Source: Bdellovibrionales bacterium (GTDB lineage: Bacteria; Bdellovibrionota; Bdellovibrionia; Bdellovibrionales; CAYMLA01). Taken from it: 64,000 bases of DNA. Numbering within the stretch: the stretch's first letter is position 1; every line of letters starts with the position of its first letter. Below, piece after piece: positions 21,001 through 30,000 of this stretch. Position numbers: made by a program. The stretch is taken from assembly GCA_965217115.1 (NCBI GenBank), contig OZ244239.1:1408001-1472000 (forward strand), in the 5' to 3' direction.

Positions 21001-24000
21001 AAATTTAATTAATAGTGTGTTTTGTTGAACGCACACGAATACAGCAATTTGCACAGTTGGCCTCTTCAGTGGCTTCATTTTCTTTTGCAGAAATAGAGTG
21101 TTTGAGCTCTAATTCAGACCCACATAAAATACAATGGTTGTGGTTTTCTAGAAAATCTTTTTGCACAAAGTTATTATCGGTAGCTTCAGTTGTAAGTATT
21201 TTTGTTTTTTCTATAGCCATAGTATTAGTTTAAGGAAAAAAGTGATAAAAAAAAAGGAAATAGAATAATGTTTTTACTTAGGTCTTATAGGTGTAGGGTA
21301 AAAGAGTGTATTTAGTATAAAAACTTTTAGGAGAACTATATGGAGGCAAGCCATAGGTCTATCAATCTAAGGATAGGTAGACTTAAAGATAGGAATAAAC
21401 GTGTACAAGAAAAGTTAGGCAAAGTAAAAAATATCCGTTTAATGATAACATTGACATTTATTTTTTTGGTGTTTATGTGCGCATTGTATCCGCAGTGGCG
21501 TGTTGAGCTTTATCTTTTTCTTGTTTATACGTTCGTATTTATTTATCTTTTTGTCAAAACTCAGCGACTGAGTGTTTTTTTAAAAAGGTCTGCGCATTTA
21601 GAGGAATTTTATAAACGTCAGTGGCAAAGATCACAGGGAAGCCCGGTGGCGTCTTATGTAAAGAATGAGAGAGGTTTTTCTGTAGAGAAAGATGACTTAA
21701 ATATATTTGGAGAGTTTTCTGTTTTTAATCTGTTAGATGAAACTTTTTCGAATGAAGGGCGAGATGTCTTGACTCGTCTTCTGCGTGAGCCAGGAAGTTT
21801 CTTTGACACGATAGAGGAGAGGCAGAAAAAAATAAAAAGCATGGGAGAGAATCGATGGGCTTGGTATCGTTTTCTGCAGGAAGGGGGATTAAGTAAGGAA
21901 AGAATGTGTTTTCAAGAATCACTTGATTTTATGAAAATGGAAAAAGATTCTTCGTACAAAAAGAACATTATTTGGCAATCATTGTTATGGGGTTCATGGG
22001 TTTCTAGTGTAGTTCTTTTTCCTCAGGTGTCGGGGTGGTTGTGGGGAATCTATTTTGTCTTTATTTTTACAAAATCCCATCTTGCTATGAGTTCTTTTAG
22101 TCGAGGAGAATCATTGATTGCTCAATTAAGAGCAGTTCGACCTGTGTTTAAATGGTTAGAGAATGATAAAAACAGAGGAGTCATTGAAAAAATAGAGACC
22201 TCTTTAATAGGATTAAAGGTTCATGGGCAGATAAAGAAATTGGAGAGGAGCTTATCTTTTTTATCTATCCAAGCCAATCCATTGGTGTTTATCTTAGTGA
22301 ATAGCCTTTTTCCTTGGAGTTCGTTGTTTTCTTTTCTTGTAGAAGAGCAGAAAACCCCTCTATTTAATAAGCTAGATAAGGTGTTTGATAAAATTGCTTA
22401 TTTAGAGGCGTTGAGTTCTCTGTCGACTTTGTGGGCCTATCAGACAAAAGTTTTTCCTCAGAGGGCAGAGGAAAAAATATTATCTCTTGAAGGGGTTTAC
22501 CATCCTTTATTACCAAGGGATGAGGTGGTTAAGAATTCTGTGTCTTTGTCTAAGGACAAGGTGATTCTTTTAACGGGTTCTAATATGGCGGGTAAATCCA
22601 CGTTTTTACGAACGATTGGGATTAATCAAGCTCTGTTTTTAGCTGGCGCTCCTGTCTTTGCTGAAAAAATGCAGGCATGGCCTTTTCCTCTGCTCTCGTG
22701 TCTTGAAGTTTCAGACTCGGTGAGAGATGGGCTGTCTTATTTTCATGCTGAGGTGTTACACTTAAAAAAACTTCTTGGAAAAGCAAAGACAGAGCCTCAT
22801 TTGTATTTTATTGATGAGATTTATAGGGGGACAAATAATAAAGAAAGATTTCGAGGAAGTTATGCTCTTATTTCTGAATTGGCGAAGACATCTAGTTTGG
22901 GTTTTGTTTCCACCCATGATTTAGAGTTAGCCTCTTTGGAGAAAGAGGGCAGTCAAATTGTAAATTATCATTTTTCAGATCATTTTGAGAATGAAGAAAT
23001 GAGGTTTTCCTATCGCCTAAAAAAAGGTCTTTGTGTGAGTACGAATGCTTTAAAAATTATGGCGTCCCATGGATTACCAGTATAAATTAAGGAAAAGTTT
23101 CTCCTTAGGGAAACAGCAGTTGTTCAGCCCATTGATTATTTGTGAGGGAGAATGAAATTCTCTCGTGAAGTCTAAATGGTTTTTCGCTCCAAAATTCAAA
23201 ATAATGAGGTTCGATAAGAAAACCTGACCAGAAAGAGGGTCGAGGTATTTTTTTATTTGAAAATTTATCGGTAATTTCTTTGACCTTCTTTTCAAGTGAT
23301 TCTGTTGATTCAAGAGGAGCAGATTGATATGAAGCCCAAGCTCCTATCTGACTTTCCCGTGGACGTGAAGCAAAGTATTCATCGGCTTCTTGGTTTGAAA
23401 CAGGGTGAGCAACTCCCTGTATGCGTACTTGTCGACAGAGAGTTTTCCAATAAAAACAGAGAGCTGTTTGGGGGTGTTGGATAAGGTCTTGGCTTTTGTG
23501 GGAGTTCATATTGGTGAAAAAAACAAAGCCCTTCTTCTGTTCAGCTAAACCATCTTTGAAGTGAGTTTTTTTAAGCAAAACAACACGGCTAGAGGGGTGA
23601 CCATTCTTATTAACTGAGGAGAGAGTCATAGCCTCAGGAAAACTAGGTTCTTTTTCCTGGGCGTCTCTAAACCAATCTTGAAATAAAATAAAAGGTTTTT
23701 CCAGTGTTTTCTCCAAATTATTTATTTACGTATTTTTGTTTATCAGAAAAAAACGGAAAGGCAATAAAATAAGGTCTTATGTCTTGATTAGGGCGAAGTT
23801 TGTCGCTAGAGAGAGTTTTTGTTGATGAGTTGAGACAAGGAGAAGGGTCTCTCCCTGTTTTTCCACAAAGATTCTTGCCCATAGGCGTAAAATAGAATTA
23901 CAGTCGTCTGTAGTTTTTAAGGTATTTGCTTCAACAGAGCAGGTATAGAGAAACGAGTGTGAAATTGGGGTAGATAAGACTGGAGAGGTGATGTGAATAA

Positions 24001-27000: not shown

Positions 27001-30000
27001 TGAGGAACAGATAGGTTTTGCTTGTGAGGTCTTGCCTGCGGAGAAGATTTTGTTGAGCTGTCGCCGTGGTCGTTTTTATGAGGAACTGTTAGCTAGAGAT
27101 CGGTTGACGGGTCATGAATTGGATTGGGCTTTAGAATTAGGAGAGTTTTCAGAGGAATATCAGGGGGAGCCAACGGTATTGTCTCTCCACAGAATTAAAT
27201 CTAGTGAAAGTTTTAGCCAAGCACTGAGAAGATTAGAAAAAGCGGGAGAACGCTATCAGAAAGTACATTTAAAAGCTGCTCTGGTGACTGAGAATTGGGA
27301 AGACTTACAAGAGGGGCATTCGTGGTATTTAGAAAGCCCAAGTGATCGGAGTTTTTTGCCTTGCTCATCTGGTGGACGCTGGTTGTGGTATAGGCTTCTT
27401 TATGCTCAGAGAATGAAGATGAGTTTTATACGAGAGAGCATAAAAAAATTAATAAAGAATAAAGATGTCTTAGATCAGCCGACGGTTTTACAACGAGCGT
27501 CTTTTTGCCAATTAGGCATTGAACAGGAAAGAGAAGTGGAATTTGCAGCCGTTTTGGGGTCTCCAGTTAGTCAGAGTTTAACCCCTTCTGAGCAGAGAGA
27601 TTTTTTTGCAAGAAAGAAATACCCAGTACTAGCTATTGATTTAAAGGAAGACGAGTTAGAGATTTCCACTTTAAACTTCTTAAAGAAATTGGGTTTAAGG
27701 GCAGCAGCAGTGACAGCTCCGTTAAAGGGAAAGATGTTAAATTTTAGTGATGTAGATAATTTATCTAAAAAGGTTAAAGGTGTTAATACTCTTTGGTGGG
27801 GTGAAGAAAAAAATAAATGGATAGGCGTAAATACTGATTTAGAGGGGTTTAGGTTTCTTTGTCGAGAGGTTTCCGAGGGTATGAGTGTTCTTGTGTGGGG
27901 AGGGGGAGGAACTTTAGGAATGATGCAAGAGGTTTTTATCCATGCGGATTTTGCATCTTTAAGAACGGGGAAGTTAAGGAATGGAAAAGAATTGAAACCT
28001 TACTATGATATTGTTATTTGGGCTTCGGGATCACAACAGGGTTGTTTTCCTGAATTGTCAAAAAACCCTGAACTGGTGATTGATTTGAGTTATGCAGAAA
28101 ACTCGTTAGGGCGTGAATTTTGTTTGCAATGGAATCCTCCCTTACCCTATCGTTCGGGAATGGAGATGTTTTTAAAGCAAGCCGAAGAACAAAGAAATTA
28201 TTGGAGTCGTCAGGGCTTTGAAGGGAAGGAAAATGTTAGGTAATGTCTGGGGAAAATGTTTTTGTGTTCATAGTTTTGGAGAGAGTCATGGTTCGGCGAT
28301 GGGAGTGGTTATCGACGGTTGTCCTGCGGGGGTTTTATTTGATCAGAAGCTGCTTGATTGGAGTTTGCAGAGACGGAGACCGGGCCAATCGGCACTGACT
28401 TCTTCGAGAAAAGAAGAGGATCGTCCAAGGGTTTTAAGTGGAGTTTTTGAGGGGAAAACATTGGGAACTCCCATCGCAATTATTGTAGAAAACCAAAACC
28501 AACGTTCTCAGGATTATGATGATATTAAGAGGGCCCCTCGTTTGGGTCATGCTGACGATGTCTGGAAAAGTAAATTTGGTCATATTGACCATCGAGGAGG
28601 GGGGCGTTCTTCGGGGAGAGAAACGGTTTCTAGAGTTATGGCGGGGGCTGTGGCTGAGATGTTAGTGAGATCGCTAGTGAGTGATATTCAAGTTTATGGT
28701 TATGGGACTCAAATAGGAGGCATTGGTCTCTCTAAGGGTTTCTCTAGAAAAGAATCTTTAGAGAAACTTAAAAATCCCCGTTATGAGGTGGATGCTTTTG
28801 ACTCTCGCCTCCCTGAAAAGGAAAAAGCAGAACAGGTTAGAGAGCTTTTGCTAAAAGCTAAGGCCGAGGGGAAGAGTTACGGTGGAGAGGTGAATTTGAT
28901 TATAAAAGGGGCGCCAGTGGGTTTGGGTCAGCCTGTTTTTTCAAAATTAAAATCTGATTTAGCTGGGGCGATGATGAGTGTGGGAGCAACCTGTTCGGTG
29001 AAATTAGGTGAAGGGGCATCTGCTGTACAAGCAGAGGGCAGCGAGTTTCATGCCTCAAGGGGAAGTGCTTCTGATGATTCTCACCAGTATGGTGGAATTC
29101 GTGGGGGGTTGTCTACGGGAGAGGATATTATTTTAATGGTTGGCTTTAAGCCGACATCTTCTGTCTTGGATGTGGCAAAGGCGGGTCGTCATGATCCTTG
29201 TATTGTTCCGAGGGCGATTCCAGTGTTAGAAGCGATGGGATGGTTAGTTTTAGCTGATCATTTGCTTTGGCAAAGATTAGATAAATTGTAGGAAAACATT
29301 TAGCTCAACTCAGTGGAAGATTTGTTTTTAATCAAATTCACCAGGGGTAGGAAGTAAGTCGAGAAGACACTCTCTCCAATACTCGGGTGCATCGTCTGAA
29401 TAATCTATAGCAATTTCATAGCCTTTTTTCCCGATTTGCTTGGTGCGAATAATACGTCCTGAGATTTCGATATTTAGCTGGGGAAGATGAAGCATAACAT
29501 GATCTCCTTCGATGGCGTGAAGGGTTAGGCTATCTCGTAACACTTGTGGAACAATATCTTCCCGTTCGATGGTGACTTTAAATCCAGAGCTTGATGCGTC
29601 CTCGATCCAGCCAAACTTGGCAATGGTGATGAAATGATCTATGGATGTGATACTTGATATTTTTATAGGCTCAACATTTTGTCTTTGAGCTATTCTTTTA
29701 TTTACTACTTGTTTTGCCATAAGAACAAACTCCTCTTGTTAGTGACAAAGACTCTTCGGGTGAATTTAGATTTATGTTAAGAAAAATATGGGCGGCATTT
29801 AAAATAAAACGAGAGCTGTCTTGAGATGAGACGATTATGAGTTTAAGGCTGGGAAAAATCTTTAGGCCATTGGATTGAATGGTCTTCGACGATGTCTAAC
29901 ATCCGCTGTAGGGGAAGATGAGCAGAGTGAAGAACTTCTGTCGATAAATTGATTTGAGGTGACAGGTTCTTTAGAGCAGCTTCAACTTTTTGTAGAGTGT

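Follow-up and report, generated by a model that had tools for sequence, protein, structure and literature searches.

The window analysed here is a 64,000-nucleotide stretch of a Bdellovibrionales genome and contains, on its forward strand at 23993-29291, aroB, aroA, a gene for a 641-amino-acid fusion protein and aroC, with neighbours that overlap or abut (Table 1). The coordinates were re-derived and proved identical to the open reading frames called in the initial annotation. aroA shares 4 nt with the end of aroB, the fusion gene starts 1 nt past the aroA stop, and aroC, measured from the earliest start it could use, has its 5' part within the 3' end of the fusion gene; the four genes would form a translationally coupled operon that covers the shikimate pathway from step 2 to step 7. 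When compared with NCBIfam models, aroC scored above its cut-off (NF003793, 345.6 bits, cut-off 321), aroA gave 217 bits with TIGR01356 (cut-off 287), and aroB gave 208.7 bits with TIGR01357 (cut-off 305), which marks aroB as a diverged member. A second PF00275 match in the genome (contig position 1212387, 358 bits) is probably MurA, and DAHP synthase (step 1) is present elsewhere in the genome (NF006421, 390.8 bits, cut-off 335).

Table 1. Genes of the shikimate cluster and domains of the fusion protein, in window coordinates
Feature	Position	Strand	Evidence
aroB, 3-dehydroquinate synthase (step 2), 358 aa	23993..25069	+	Pfam DHQ_synthase 94.6 bits, DHQS_C 73.4 bits
aroA, EPSP synthase (step 6), 416 aa	25066..26316	+	Pfam EPSP_synthase 168.4 bits
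aroK-aroD*-aroE gene, putatively trifunctional, 641 aa	26318..28243	+	Pfam and relatives' alignment
Shikimate kinase domain, ~residues 14-172 (step 5)	26357..26833	+	Pfam SKI at 24-172, 57.5 bits
Candidate diverged type I 3-dehydroquinate dehydratase domain, ~residues 188-405 (step 3)	26879..27532	+	Predicted structure, conserved columns
Shikimate dehydrogenase domain, ~residues 409-632 (step 4)	27542..28213	+	Pfam Shikimate_dh_N at 412-492, 33.9 bits
aroC, chorismate synthase (step 7), 357 aa	28218..29291	+	Pfam Chorismate_synt 339.7 bits

As initially annotated, SKI and Shikimate_dh_N were the only shikimate families that Pfam recognised in the fusion protein, and both are the sole matches of their kind in the genome. 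In the N-terminal domain, G22-K28 (the P-loop), D45/D47, R71, G97/G99 and R147, which we take to be the motifs of shikimate kinase, are invariant in 30 relatives. In the C-terminal domain the same holds for K470, D507 and the glycine-rich G528-G531, and a profile of this domain matched 40 solved shikimate dehydrogenase (SDH) chains, the best being 1nvt (E 1.8e-19, full length).

Residues 175-410 gave no Pfam match down to E 1, and no NCBIfam model detected the middle domain of ~220 amino acids. The earlier finding that DHquinase_I and DHquinase_II have no match in the genome held when the threshold was widened: a six-frame search of the 2.17-Mb genome (99.4% complete) returned no match to either model at E<=1, and control genomes gave matches in the same search. 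Sequence-only comparisons of the middle domain with canonical dehydroquinases were not significant. The best PDB match of a middle-domain profile was 1sfj (E 0.29, among unrelated matches of equal rank), hhalign against an alignment of canonical dehydroquinases gave E 0.036 (probability 1.4%), the family profile matched E. coli AroD at E 0.13, and identity with solved dehydroquinases is 13-18% (TM ~0.6). A language-model feature search returned clusters with PF01487 as its three best named ones, at scores (0.88-0.89) that the tool itself rates as a lead only. Positions 195-595 of the family profile align with residues 24-493 of the plant bifunctional enzyme DHQ-SDH (2gpt, E 2.2e-18; 6bmb, E 3.8e-17), which reproduces the reported alignment through both plant domains. 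In all 150 representatives listed, the middle domain is part of a larger protein or of a fragment of one, and none is free-standing.

A new AlphaFold2 model of residues 170-412, built on a 61-row alignment (pLDDT 88.6, pTM 0.87), was searched against the PDB with Foldseek. All listed matches among the 36 at E<=1e-3 are type I dehydroquinases, including the AROM domains 5swu and 5swv; the best was 3js3_A (E 4.5e-5, TM 0.60), and other TIM barrels appeared from rank 39 on (TM 0.37-0.45). In VIA-align, run against 48,161 representative chains, the best matches (ranks 1-11) were likewise type I dehydroquinases, with Z 16.0-13.1 and an rmsd of 3.0-3.8 across 180-203 residues; the chain at rank 4, 3l9c, bears just the title smu.777, and the next fold followed at Z 11.5. 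Model and both searches agree with the likeness to type I dehydroquinases proposed initially. The plant DHQ-SDH structures are older than AlphaFold training, and the model may be leaning on them. In a model of the full-length fusion (pLDDT 87.8, pTM 0.88) the middle and dehydrogenase domains are placed as in plant DHQ-SDH (rmsd 5.5-5.7 over ~500 columns), with TM 0.50-0.52 by query and 0.62-0.64 by target.

Across the fragment, identity between the 61 family members and the window's domain is 30-44%, and the mean column identity among the 61 is 24%. Residues E221, R223, D225, R249, D269, S289, H291, K319, G353, R359 and Q387 are invariant in all 61, as are P348, W357 and D386. The key columns align with E. 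coli AroD E46, R48, D50, R82, D114, S141, H143, K170, G209 and Q236, of which E46 to K170 and Q236 also match the columns of fungal AROM, and they cover the Schiff-base lysine, the catalytic histidine, the substrate arginine and the glutamine. Lys319 would form the Schiff base with 3-dehydroquinate and His291 would act as acid/base in the dehydration to 3-dehydroshikimate, which the C-terminal domain would reduce with NADPH; the resulting shikimate would be phosphorylated by the N-terminal domain. Nothing in the middle domain corresponds to the E86-G-G segment of enterobacterial AroD, which is also absent from Pfam-positive f6 proteins and from the D-E-A proteins described below; Met205 is substituted, and the equivalent of Arg213 is one column off or has moved to R359. 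W270, E273, F346, L347, P348 and W357 are invariants specific to the lineage. We considered whether the middle domain could be a dead, dehydroquinase-derived spacer, step 3 being carried out by an unrecognised non-homologous enzyme encoded elsewhere in the genome. The blindness of Pfam and NCBIfam to the domain, the non-significant profile comparisons and the loss of the canonical E86 and M205 positions are consistent with such a spacer, but we judge it very unlikely: at a mean column identity of 24%, a spacer would not be expected to keep the lysine, the histidine, three arginines and the glutamine invariant, the six-frame DHquinase_I/II searches yielded no other candidate, and the domain and types I and II show an exactly complementary distribution.

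This distribution was determined in 151 sampled genomes of Bdellovibrionota, of which 88 encode chorismate synthase, 36 the middle domain, 44 DHquinase_II and 7 DHquinase_I above its cut-off. None of the 36 middle-domain genomes had a type I or II match, and exactly one kind of dehydroquinase was present in 36 + 43 + 6 of the 88 chorismate-synthase-positive genomes; the remaining three carry a more diverged fusion (G031) or the D-E-A fusion (G101 and G142). The middle domain is strictly complementary to type I/II dehydroquinases across the phylum sample, a pattern that reflects five related families and this genome's own and not independent events. As a trait of the lineage, the fusion occurs in Bdellovibrionales and allied families, Bdellovibrio bacteriovorus included, and would stand in for separate aroD/aroQ, aroE and aroK genes. 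The claim that the middle domain is the genome's only dehydroquinase candidate is supported, no other type I or II match being present and the fusion carrying the sole kinase and dehydrogenase as well. Such a domain, too diverged for standard annotation to see, would explain the apparent hole in the chorismate pathway. It is also conceivable that the domain is active with a shifted chemistry or substrate (e.g. a quinate- or aminoshikimate-type intermediate) and does not serve the standard chorismate route. The very long stem to the fusion clade in the dehydroquinase tree, the lineage-specific invariants and the lack of prephenate dehydratase in the genome speak for such a shift, which we regard as very unlikely indeed, since most relatives have the gene flanked by aroB/aroA on one side and aroC on the other, the genome that has it as sole shikimate kinase and dehydrogenase also has DAHP synthase and chorismate synthase, the type I substrate-binding columns are retained and an isochorismate-synthase-like consumer of chorismate is present.

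A bridge between the fusion and canonical dehydroquinases is provided by ~58 proteins of 840-895 amino acids (P0260-P0317, from Bacteriovoracia/Oligoflexia MAGs) that join DHquinase_I, SDH and EPSPS (D-E-A). Four listed D-E-A proteins bear the NCBI name 'type I 3-dehydroquinate dehydratase'; with PF01487, P0260 reaches 27.5 bits (cut-off 22.2). From FELRDD to the SDH end, the D-E-A and fusion families align by hhalign over 378 columns (probability 99.2, E 3.3e-19); with the middle domain alone the E-value is 0.0041. Both families have a GRxWxW motif, the canonical enzymes G..SR. In the dehydroquinase-domain tree the D-E-A family is placed between canonical enzymes and the fusion domain, and in the SDH tree it forms the sister group of the fusion clade (96/96), although this grouping could be long-branch attraction, given the branch lengths of the fusion and D-E-A clades (1.8 and 1.4 in the SDH tree; stem 3.17 in the dehydroquinase tree). 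Most likely, the D*-E part of the fusion descends from a dehydroquinase-dehydrogenase fusion already in the phylum. Fold, catalytic columns and this putative descent support the middle domain as a predicted type I dehydroquinase and, with the phyletic pattern, the initial reading of the protein as a probable kinase-dehydroquinase-dehydrogenase.

The order of the operon genes and fusion domains equals that of fungal AROM by Pfam and the DHQS-EPSPS-SK-DHQD-SD order in section 2.8 of PMC6851490, as the initial annotation had stated. This order is kept in most relatives. The initial annotation had found no longer relatives, and this is corrected here, as four-domain EPSPS-SK-X-SDH proteins of 968-1079 amino acids (aroA fused too) were found. 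The best PDB matches of the whole-family profile were again AROM chains (6hqv, 1.5e-19; 7tbv, 2.6e-19). An operon or fusion like those of Bdellovibrionota could have given rise to eukaryotic AROM or its SK-DHQ-SDH part, or the bacterial genes could have come from a eukaryote. Common descent of either kind fits the identical B-A-K-D-E order, the four-domain A-K-D-E proteins, one collinear hhalign alignment (576 columns against AROM 868-1573, probability 98.3) and the AROM chains that top the PDB matches of the whole-protein profile and, by E-value, of the whole model. In addition, the SDH tree attaches AROM beside the fusion+D-E-A clade, the AU test keeps a fusion+AROM clade (p 0.656), and the SDH tree constrained to it beats the quick free tree by 8.85 log units. 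However, in the SDH tree the split of fusion+D-E-A from AROM and the rest has 96/96 and AROM is joined to fusion+D-E-A at only 69/23, and the dehydroquinase tree nests AROM in the canonical clade (100/100) with the D-E-A grade between it and the fusion domain. SK-only and SDH-only profiles rank AROM 11, 13 and 14 of 27 (42.8-44.2 bits against 52.1 for 2pt5) and 33, 34, 38 and 39 of 40 (40-48 bits against 73.5), and with the family HMMs the fungal AROM gets lower scores than E. coli AroK, E. coli AroE and most Bdellovibrionota enzymes of the panel. The predicted domain arrangement is unlike that of AROM (TM 0.25-0.29, rmsd ~19), and the phylum also has the orders E-K, D-E-A and aroB directly before K-D-E. 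On a small sample of a single fungal AROM, a single bacterial phylum and E. coli, we consider common descent improbable to a high degree. The AROM-like order most likely arose independently through an operon-driven series of fusions, a bacterial invention favoured by the per-domain scores, the dehydroquinase tree and the other fusion orders in the phylum, and the earlier warning of possible convergence behind the collinearity points the same way.

Overall, we hold with good confidence that the locus is a coupled aroB-aroA-aroK/aroD*/aroE-aroC operon, whose trifunctional, lineage-wide fusion includes a diverged type I dehydroquinase, with a D*-E part from the phylum's dehydroquinase-dehydrogenase fusion and an AROM order of independent origin. 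Our literature search found no published account of this arrangement. The fusion domain shares with AroD (PF01487; 2egz, 1sfj, 3js3, 1qfe) the (beta/alpha)8 barrel and, in the same order, the E-x-R-x-D, S/T-x-R, S-x-H, K and Q motifs, but scores below every curated model, has GRWxWYR in place of G..SR and has its own invariant D-W-A-L-E and F-L-P. In plant DHQ-SDH (Arabidopsis; 2gpt, 2o7q, 2o7s, 6bmb) a dehydroquinase is likewise fused N-terminal to shikimate dehydrogenase in a similar two-domain arrangement; however, the plant dehydroquinase is canonical and Pfam-positive, and the plant enzyme has no kinase domain. The D-E-A proteins come from the same phylum and are nearest in the dehydroquinase tree, but differ in their domain order, in having the kinase as a separate gene and in a dehydroquinase still detectable by Pfam in many members. 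AROM/Aro1 (6hqv, 7u5s, 7tbv) has the same activity order and is collinear over SK-DHQD-SD; in contrast to the bacterial fusion, it is eukaryotic and unites five activities, whereas three are fused here (four in some relatives) and aroB is always separate.

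Four forward-strand open reading frames that overlap or abut lie between 23993 and 29291, with a single nucleotide separating aroA from the fusion gene in the window, and, as the initial annotation had described, the centre of the fusion protein is invisible to Pfam: residues 175-410 (numbering of the 641-aa fusion protein throughout) remained blank down to E 1, and NCBIfam gave the same result.

Positions of the shikimate-pathway genes in the window
Feature	Position	Strand	Basis
aroB (DHQ synthase)	23993-25069	+	Pfam
aroA (EPSP synthase)	25066-26316	+	Pfam
Fusion gene (641 aa)	26318-28243	+	Pfam SKI and Shikimate_dh_N
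aroC (chorismate synthase)	28218-29291	+	Pfam

The two flanking parts of the fusion protein were recognized directly. The kinase part matched Pfam SKI (PF01202) over residues 24-172 with 57.5 bits (cut-off 22.1), and the kinase motifs G22-K28 (the P-loop), D45/D47, R71 and G97/G99 are invariant in the fusion family. The dehydrogenase part matched Shikimate_dh_N (PF08501) over residues 412-492 with 33.9 bits (cut-off 27), a profile of the shikimate dehydrogenase (SDH) domain matched AroE structures along their full length, and K470 and D507, which we take to be the catalytic Lys/Asp pair of AroE, are invariant in the family together with the NADP glycine motif G528-G531. The other Pfam matches on the protein were weak P-loop families. 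Since aroB (208.7 bits, cut-off 305) and aroA (217 bits, cut-off 287) both score well below their NCBIfam equivalog cut-offs, the entire operon, and not the dehydroquinase domain alone, appears from its sequence to be fast-evolving. Scans for promoters and terminators performed no better than on shuffled sequences (16 versus 12.1 and 7 versus 5.1, respectively). The first possible start of aroC is a TTG at 28218, which gives a 26-nt overlap with the fusion gene; an ATG five codons downstream would give a shorter overlap.

The genome consists of one contig of 2.17 Mb and is 99.4% complete, and its sole SKI match and sole Shikimate_dh_N match both fall in the fusion. The claim that it has no other dehydroquinase held, as six-frame searches of the whole genome with DHquinase_I and DHquinase_II returned 0 matches at E<=1 and control genomes did give matches. 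DAHP synthase (NF006421, 390.8 bits, above cut-off) is encoded elsewhere, on the reverse strand at 1444-2238 of locus L001 (contig positions 1531492-1535193, outside the window), and the second PF00793 match of the genome is KDO8P synthase. A UbiE/MenG-type methyltransferase gene adjoins the DAHP synthase gene, and divergent from it lies the gene for the one chorismate-binding enzyme of the genome, for which isochorismate synthase is the best family, with a score below the family cut-off. Given this neighbourhood, and because no match to prephenate dehydratase was found in the genome, the pathway is probably kept to supply chorismate to quinone synthesis rather than to that of aromatic amino acids.

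The assignment of the middle domain (residues ~188-405) as a dehydroquinase is not carried by sequence statistics alone. PF01487 (DHquinase_I) gave no match at E<=1 on the fusion protein, phmmer with the fusion protein found no dehydroquinase in the PDB, and the best dehydroquinase obtained from the PDB with a middle-domain profile had an E of 0.29; comparison with E. coli AroD (E 0.13) and hhalign against a 9-row canonical alignment (E 0.036) likewise fell short of significance. The predicted fold, on the other hand, bears out the proposal of a hidden type I enzyme: a new AlphaFold model of residues 170-412 (61-row alignment, pLDDT 88.6, pTM 0.87) is a (beta/alpha)8 barrel of the dehydroquinase I type. 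Foldseek gave 36 PDB matches to it at E<=1e-3, those listed all being type I dehydroquinases (best 3js3_A, E 4.5e-5, TM 0.60), and unrelated TIM barrels appeared only from rank 39 (TM 0.37-0.45). Independently of Foldseek, VIA-align placed type I dehydroquinases at ranks 1-11 among 48,161 chains (Z 16.0-13.1), the next fold having a Z of 11.5. Language-model features also pointed to PF01487 clusters with scores of 0.88-0.89, which the tool rates as a lead only.

Thirteen residues of the middle domain (E221, R223, D225, R249, D269, S289, H291, K319, P348, W357, R359, D386 and Q387) are invariant in the 61 sequences. With both MAFFT and hhalign the catalytic columns fall on E46, R48, D50, R82, D114, S141, H143, K170 and Q236 of E. 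coli AroD, and these columns are shared with fungal AROM and other canonical dehydroquinases. K319 aligns with the AROM lysine and with K170, the Schiff-base lysine of E. coli and Salmonella AroD; S289 and H291 reproduce the S-x-H arrangement of S141 and H143, the latter being the catalytic acid/base histidine of AroD. E221/R223, R249 and Q387 correspond column for column to E46/R48, R82 and Q236, which, together with R213, are the substrate-binding residues of the type I enzyme; for R213, the possible counterparts R354 and R359 are displaced by one alignment column. Canonical AroD also has an E86-G-G segment and Met205, neither of which is kept. W270, E273, F346-P348, W357 and R359 are specific to the lineage. 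Judged from the aligned residues and the predicted fold, the middle domain is a putative type I dehydroquinase of a subfamily that lies beyond current profiles.

A Pfam or NCBIfam cut-off measures detection and not mechanism, and the link of the middle domain to recognized dehydroquinases runs through a second fusion family of the same phylum, DHquinase_I-SDH-EPSPS (henceforth D-E-A). This family comprises ~58 proteins of 840-895 aa (P0260-P0317) from Bacteriovoracia, Oligoflexia and Bdellovibrionota metagenome-assembled genomes (MAGs), and in two of the genomes we sampled (G101, L028:2980-5547; G142, L029) its gene is followed by a separate shikimate kinase gene. PF01487 is recorded in many members but not all, which places their dehydroquinase part at the edge of Pfam detection, and NCBI names some of them 'type I 3-dehydroquinate dehydratase'. 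A profile of our fusion family aligned with D-E-A without a break, starting at FELRDD in the middle domain and running to where SDH ends (probability 99.2, E 3.3e-19, 378 columns), the middle domain alone aligned with an E of 0.0041 over 178 columns, and both families have GRxWxW where canonical enzymes have G..SR. The trees cover Bdellovibrionota, E. coli and one fungal AROM only. In a carefully searched 40-row dehydroquinase tree all fusion domains group together (100/100, stem 3.17), the canonical clade (100/100) unites the enzymes of family f6 of the phylum, three bifunctional DHQ-SDH proteins, E. coli and AROM, and D-E-A takes an intermediate position. The SDH tree, also carefully searched (46 rows, left from a 60-row set without duplicate loci and three fragments once 13 fusion rows and L142, a long row, had been dropped), places the fusion clade (100/98) as sister to D-E-A (96/96). 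Both clades are long-branched, and their grouping may be long-branch attraction.

The family is large and largely misnamed. A word-indexed search returned 439 relatives, and among the 120 listed (566-664 aa) PF01202 was recorded in all, PF08501 in nearly all and PF01487 in none; they come from Bdellovibrio, Pseudobdellovibrionaceae, Bdellovibrionales and Oligoflexia and are named 'shikimate kinase', 'shikimate 5-dehydrogenase/shikimate kinase' or 'shikimate synthase'. A phmmer search of 1.84 billion representative sequences with just the middle domain gave 409 hits, 294 of them at E<=1e-10, and the best 150 of the 409 are all family members in which the domain sits inside larger proteins or fragments thereof. 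With one genome taken per species, a pattern scan recovered the fusion in 139 species-level genomes, among them three strains of B. bacteriovorus and several cultured isolates of Bdellovibrio. Fusion-type genes were also seen on MAG contigs entitled Planctomycetota, Planctomycetia, Bacillota, Streptomyces griseus and Myxococcales (L035, L048, L050, L060, L106 and L108), and these foreign labels are probably binning or labelling errors.

The distribution of the domain was compared with that of canonical enzymes in 151 sampled Bdellovibrionota genomes, each at least 80% complete. Chorismate synthase occurs in 88 of the 151, the middle domain (E<=0.001) in 36, DHquinase_II in 44 and DHquinase_I above cut-off in 7, all of family f6. 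The 36 comprise 13/13 genomes of family f2, 10/11 of f3, 10/15 of f7, 2/10 of f15 and the window's own genome, and none (0/36) has a type I or type II match. Genome scans thus divide the 88 into 36 with the middle domain, 43 with a type II and 6 with a type I enzyme, and 3 with none; of these three, one (G031) encodes a more diverged 592-aa protein of the fusion family with the invariant columns intact, and the other two (G101 and G142) the D-E-A protein (855-910 aa), so that each chorismate-synthase genome has exactly one dehydroquinase candidate (88/88). As the sampled genomes are kin, a handful of evolutionary events underlie this pattern, which should not be counted as 88 independent trials.

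Gene order is widely conserved. In 27 of the 36 middle-domain genomes aroB, aroA and the fusion gene are consecutive on one strand, and aroC comes next in most. Among the nine exceptions, four (G002, G036, G073 and G092) have aroB-aroA apart from fusion-aroC, one (G082) has aroB directly 5' of the fusion and aroA-aroC elsewhere, one (G052) has aroA and the fusion separated by 2.4 kb of inserted sequence, and two (G133 and G086) are fragmented assemblies. In the ninth, G047 (C1 160163-160732 and C9 114905-118337), the fusion stands alone, and another contig carries a cluster of aroA, aroB and aroC that looks canonical and scores much higher with Pfam; this cluster may be a replacement by transfer. 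Likewise, of 80 named loci found by tblastn with the window's four proteins, a set that overlaps with the 36 genomes, 55 show aroB-aroA-fusion-aroC and 3 aroB-aroA-fusion; nine are cut upstream by a contig end and are consistent with this order (aroA-fusion-aroC 4, fusion-aroC 5), and thirteen show other arrangements. At two loci (L096, frame 4219-6549; G073, C112:15782-16756; 777 and 855 aa) the aroC frame extends far upstream, either as a frameshifted fusion running into aroC or as a further fusion.

In some relatives the fusion also includes aroA. Four-domain EPSPS-SK-dehydroquinase-SDH proteins (SK, shikimate kinase; P0173, P0216, P0236, G070 and L038) comprise three metagenomic representatives of 971-1037 aa, a protein of 1079 aa in G070, whose gene is overlapped by aroB on its upstream side and followed by aroC, and one of 968 aa in a 3.26-Mb Bdellovibrionaceae contig; another is on the truncated contig L110. 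They fall in different subclades of a quick 60-row SDH tree, which suggests that the stop codon separating aroA from the adjoining fusion gene has been lost more than once. Further apparent fusions (L035, L041, L043, L045 and L048) were long stop-to-stop frames with the upstream gene in another frame, and apparent dehydroquinase-SDH forms (P0192, P0219 and P0241) are fragments whose sequences begin within the domain; neither set was retained. Elsewhere in the phylum, SDH-SK fusions of 407-501 aa occur in f6 (L018-L023, L117-L122), with a separate canonical type I aroD immediately 5', and in some genomes of f15 (L113, L116), and family f22 has D-E-A with a separate kinase. Hence, shikimate genes have been fused several times, and in different orders, within the phylum.

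The order DHQS-EPSPS-SK-DHQD-SD, given for AROM in section 2.8 of PMC6851490 and in agreement with Pfam on a fungal AROM (P0259), is that of the genes and domains in the window, as initially proposed. The window's protein unites three of the five activities. A family-profile search for bacterial proteins of at least 1163 aa found none (weak evidence according to the tool) and only one fungal AROM; the earlier search had likewise found no relatives above 1122 aa, to which the four-domain proteins (968-1079 aa) are now added as longer relatives. AROM is the best match of the whole-protein profile and of the whole model because the three domains occur together only there. Considered separately, the individual domains argue against a special relation: AROM ranked 11, 13 and 14 of 27 PDB matches with an SK-only profile and 33, 34, 38 and 39 of 40 with an SDH-only profile, and the family HMMs gave it 37 bits each, less than E. 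coli AroK/AroE and most enzymes of the Bdellovibrionota panel. The AROM dehydroquinase domains had structural Z values of 14.1-13.3, tied with bacterial enzymes. A full-length model (pLDDT 87.8, pTM 0.88) superposed poorly on AROM (TM 0.25-0.29, rmsd ~19), and its dehydroquinase-SDH pair superposed on plant DHQ-SDH with TM 0.50-0.64.

We considered whether the Bdellovibrionota series could nevertheless be homologous to the route behind eukaryotic AROM, from separate B-A-K-D-E genes through a K-D-E fusion to repeated A-K-D-E proteins by single-stop loss, such that AROM, or at least its SK-DHQD-SD module, was acquired by an early eukaryote through transfer of such an operon or fusion, after which the dehydroquinase domain of the bacteria diverged past recognition. 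The SDH tree attaches AROM beside the fusion and D-E-A clade with weak support (69/23; long branches and narrow sampling), and an AU test on equally narrow sampling (one fungus, one phylum and E. coli) did not reject fusion plus AROM (p 0.656), the constrained tree being better than the quick free tree. However, the low similarity ranks of AROM for SK and SDH and its place among canonical enzymes in the dehydroquinase tree speak against such descent, which we regard as very improbable; independent fusion guided by the operon is much likelier.

Our literature search found no paper on the fusion protein, and the public names of its relatives miss the dehydroquinase. What is new is a probable type I dehydroquinase subfamily past current profiles, in a bacterial tri- to tetrafunctional fusion series of AROM order. 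This corrects a systematic annotation error: step 3 looks broken in Bdellovibrio bacteriovorus and more than 100 related species-level genomes, where the gene is named merely 'shikimate kinase' or 'shikimate synthase', and metabolic models or auxotrophy predictions for these predators would wrongly call chorismate synthesis incomplete. The subfamily should also be useful for building a profile model and for finding the indispensable positions of the Schiff-base mechanism. Finally, the series provides a bacterial, genetically tractable parallel to AROM, and because one order of activities is seen as an operon, as a three-domain and as a four-domain protein, it allows a test of the proposition that operon order sets the order of fusion.
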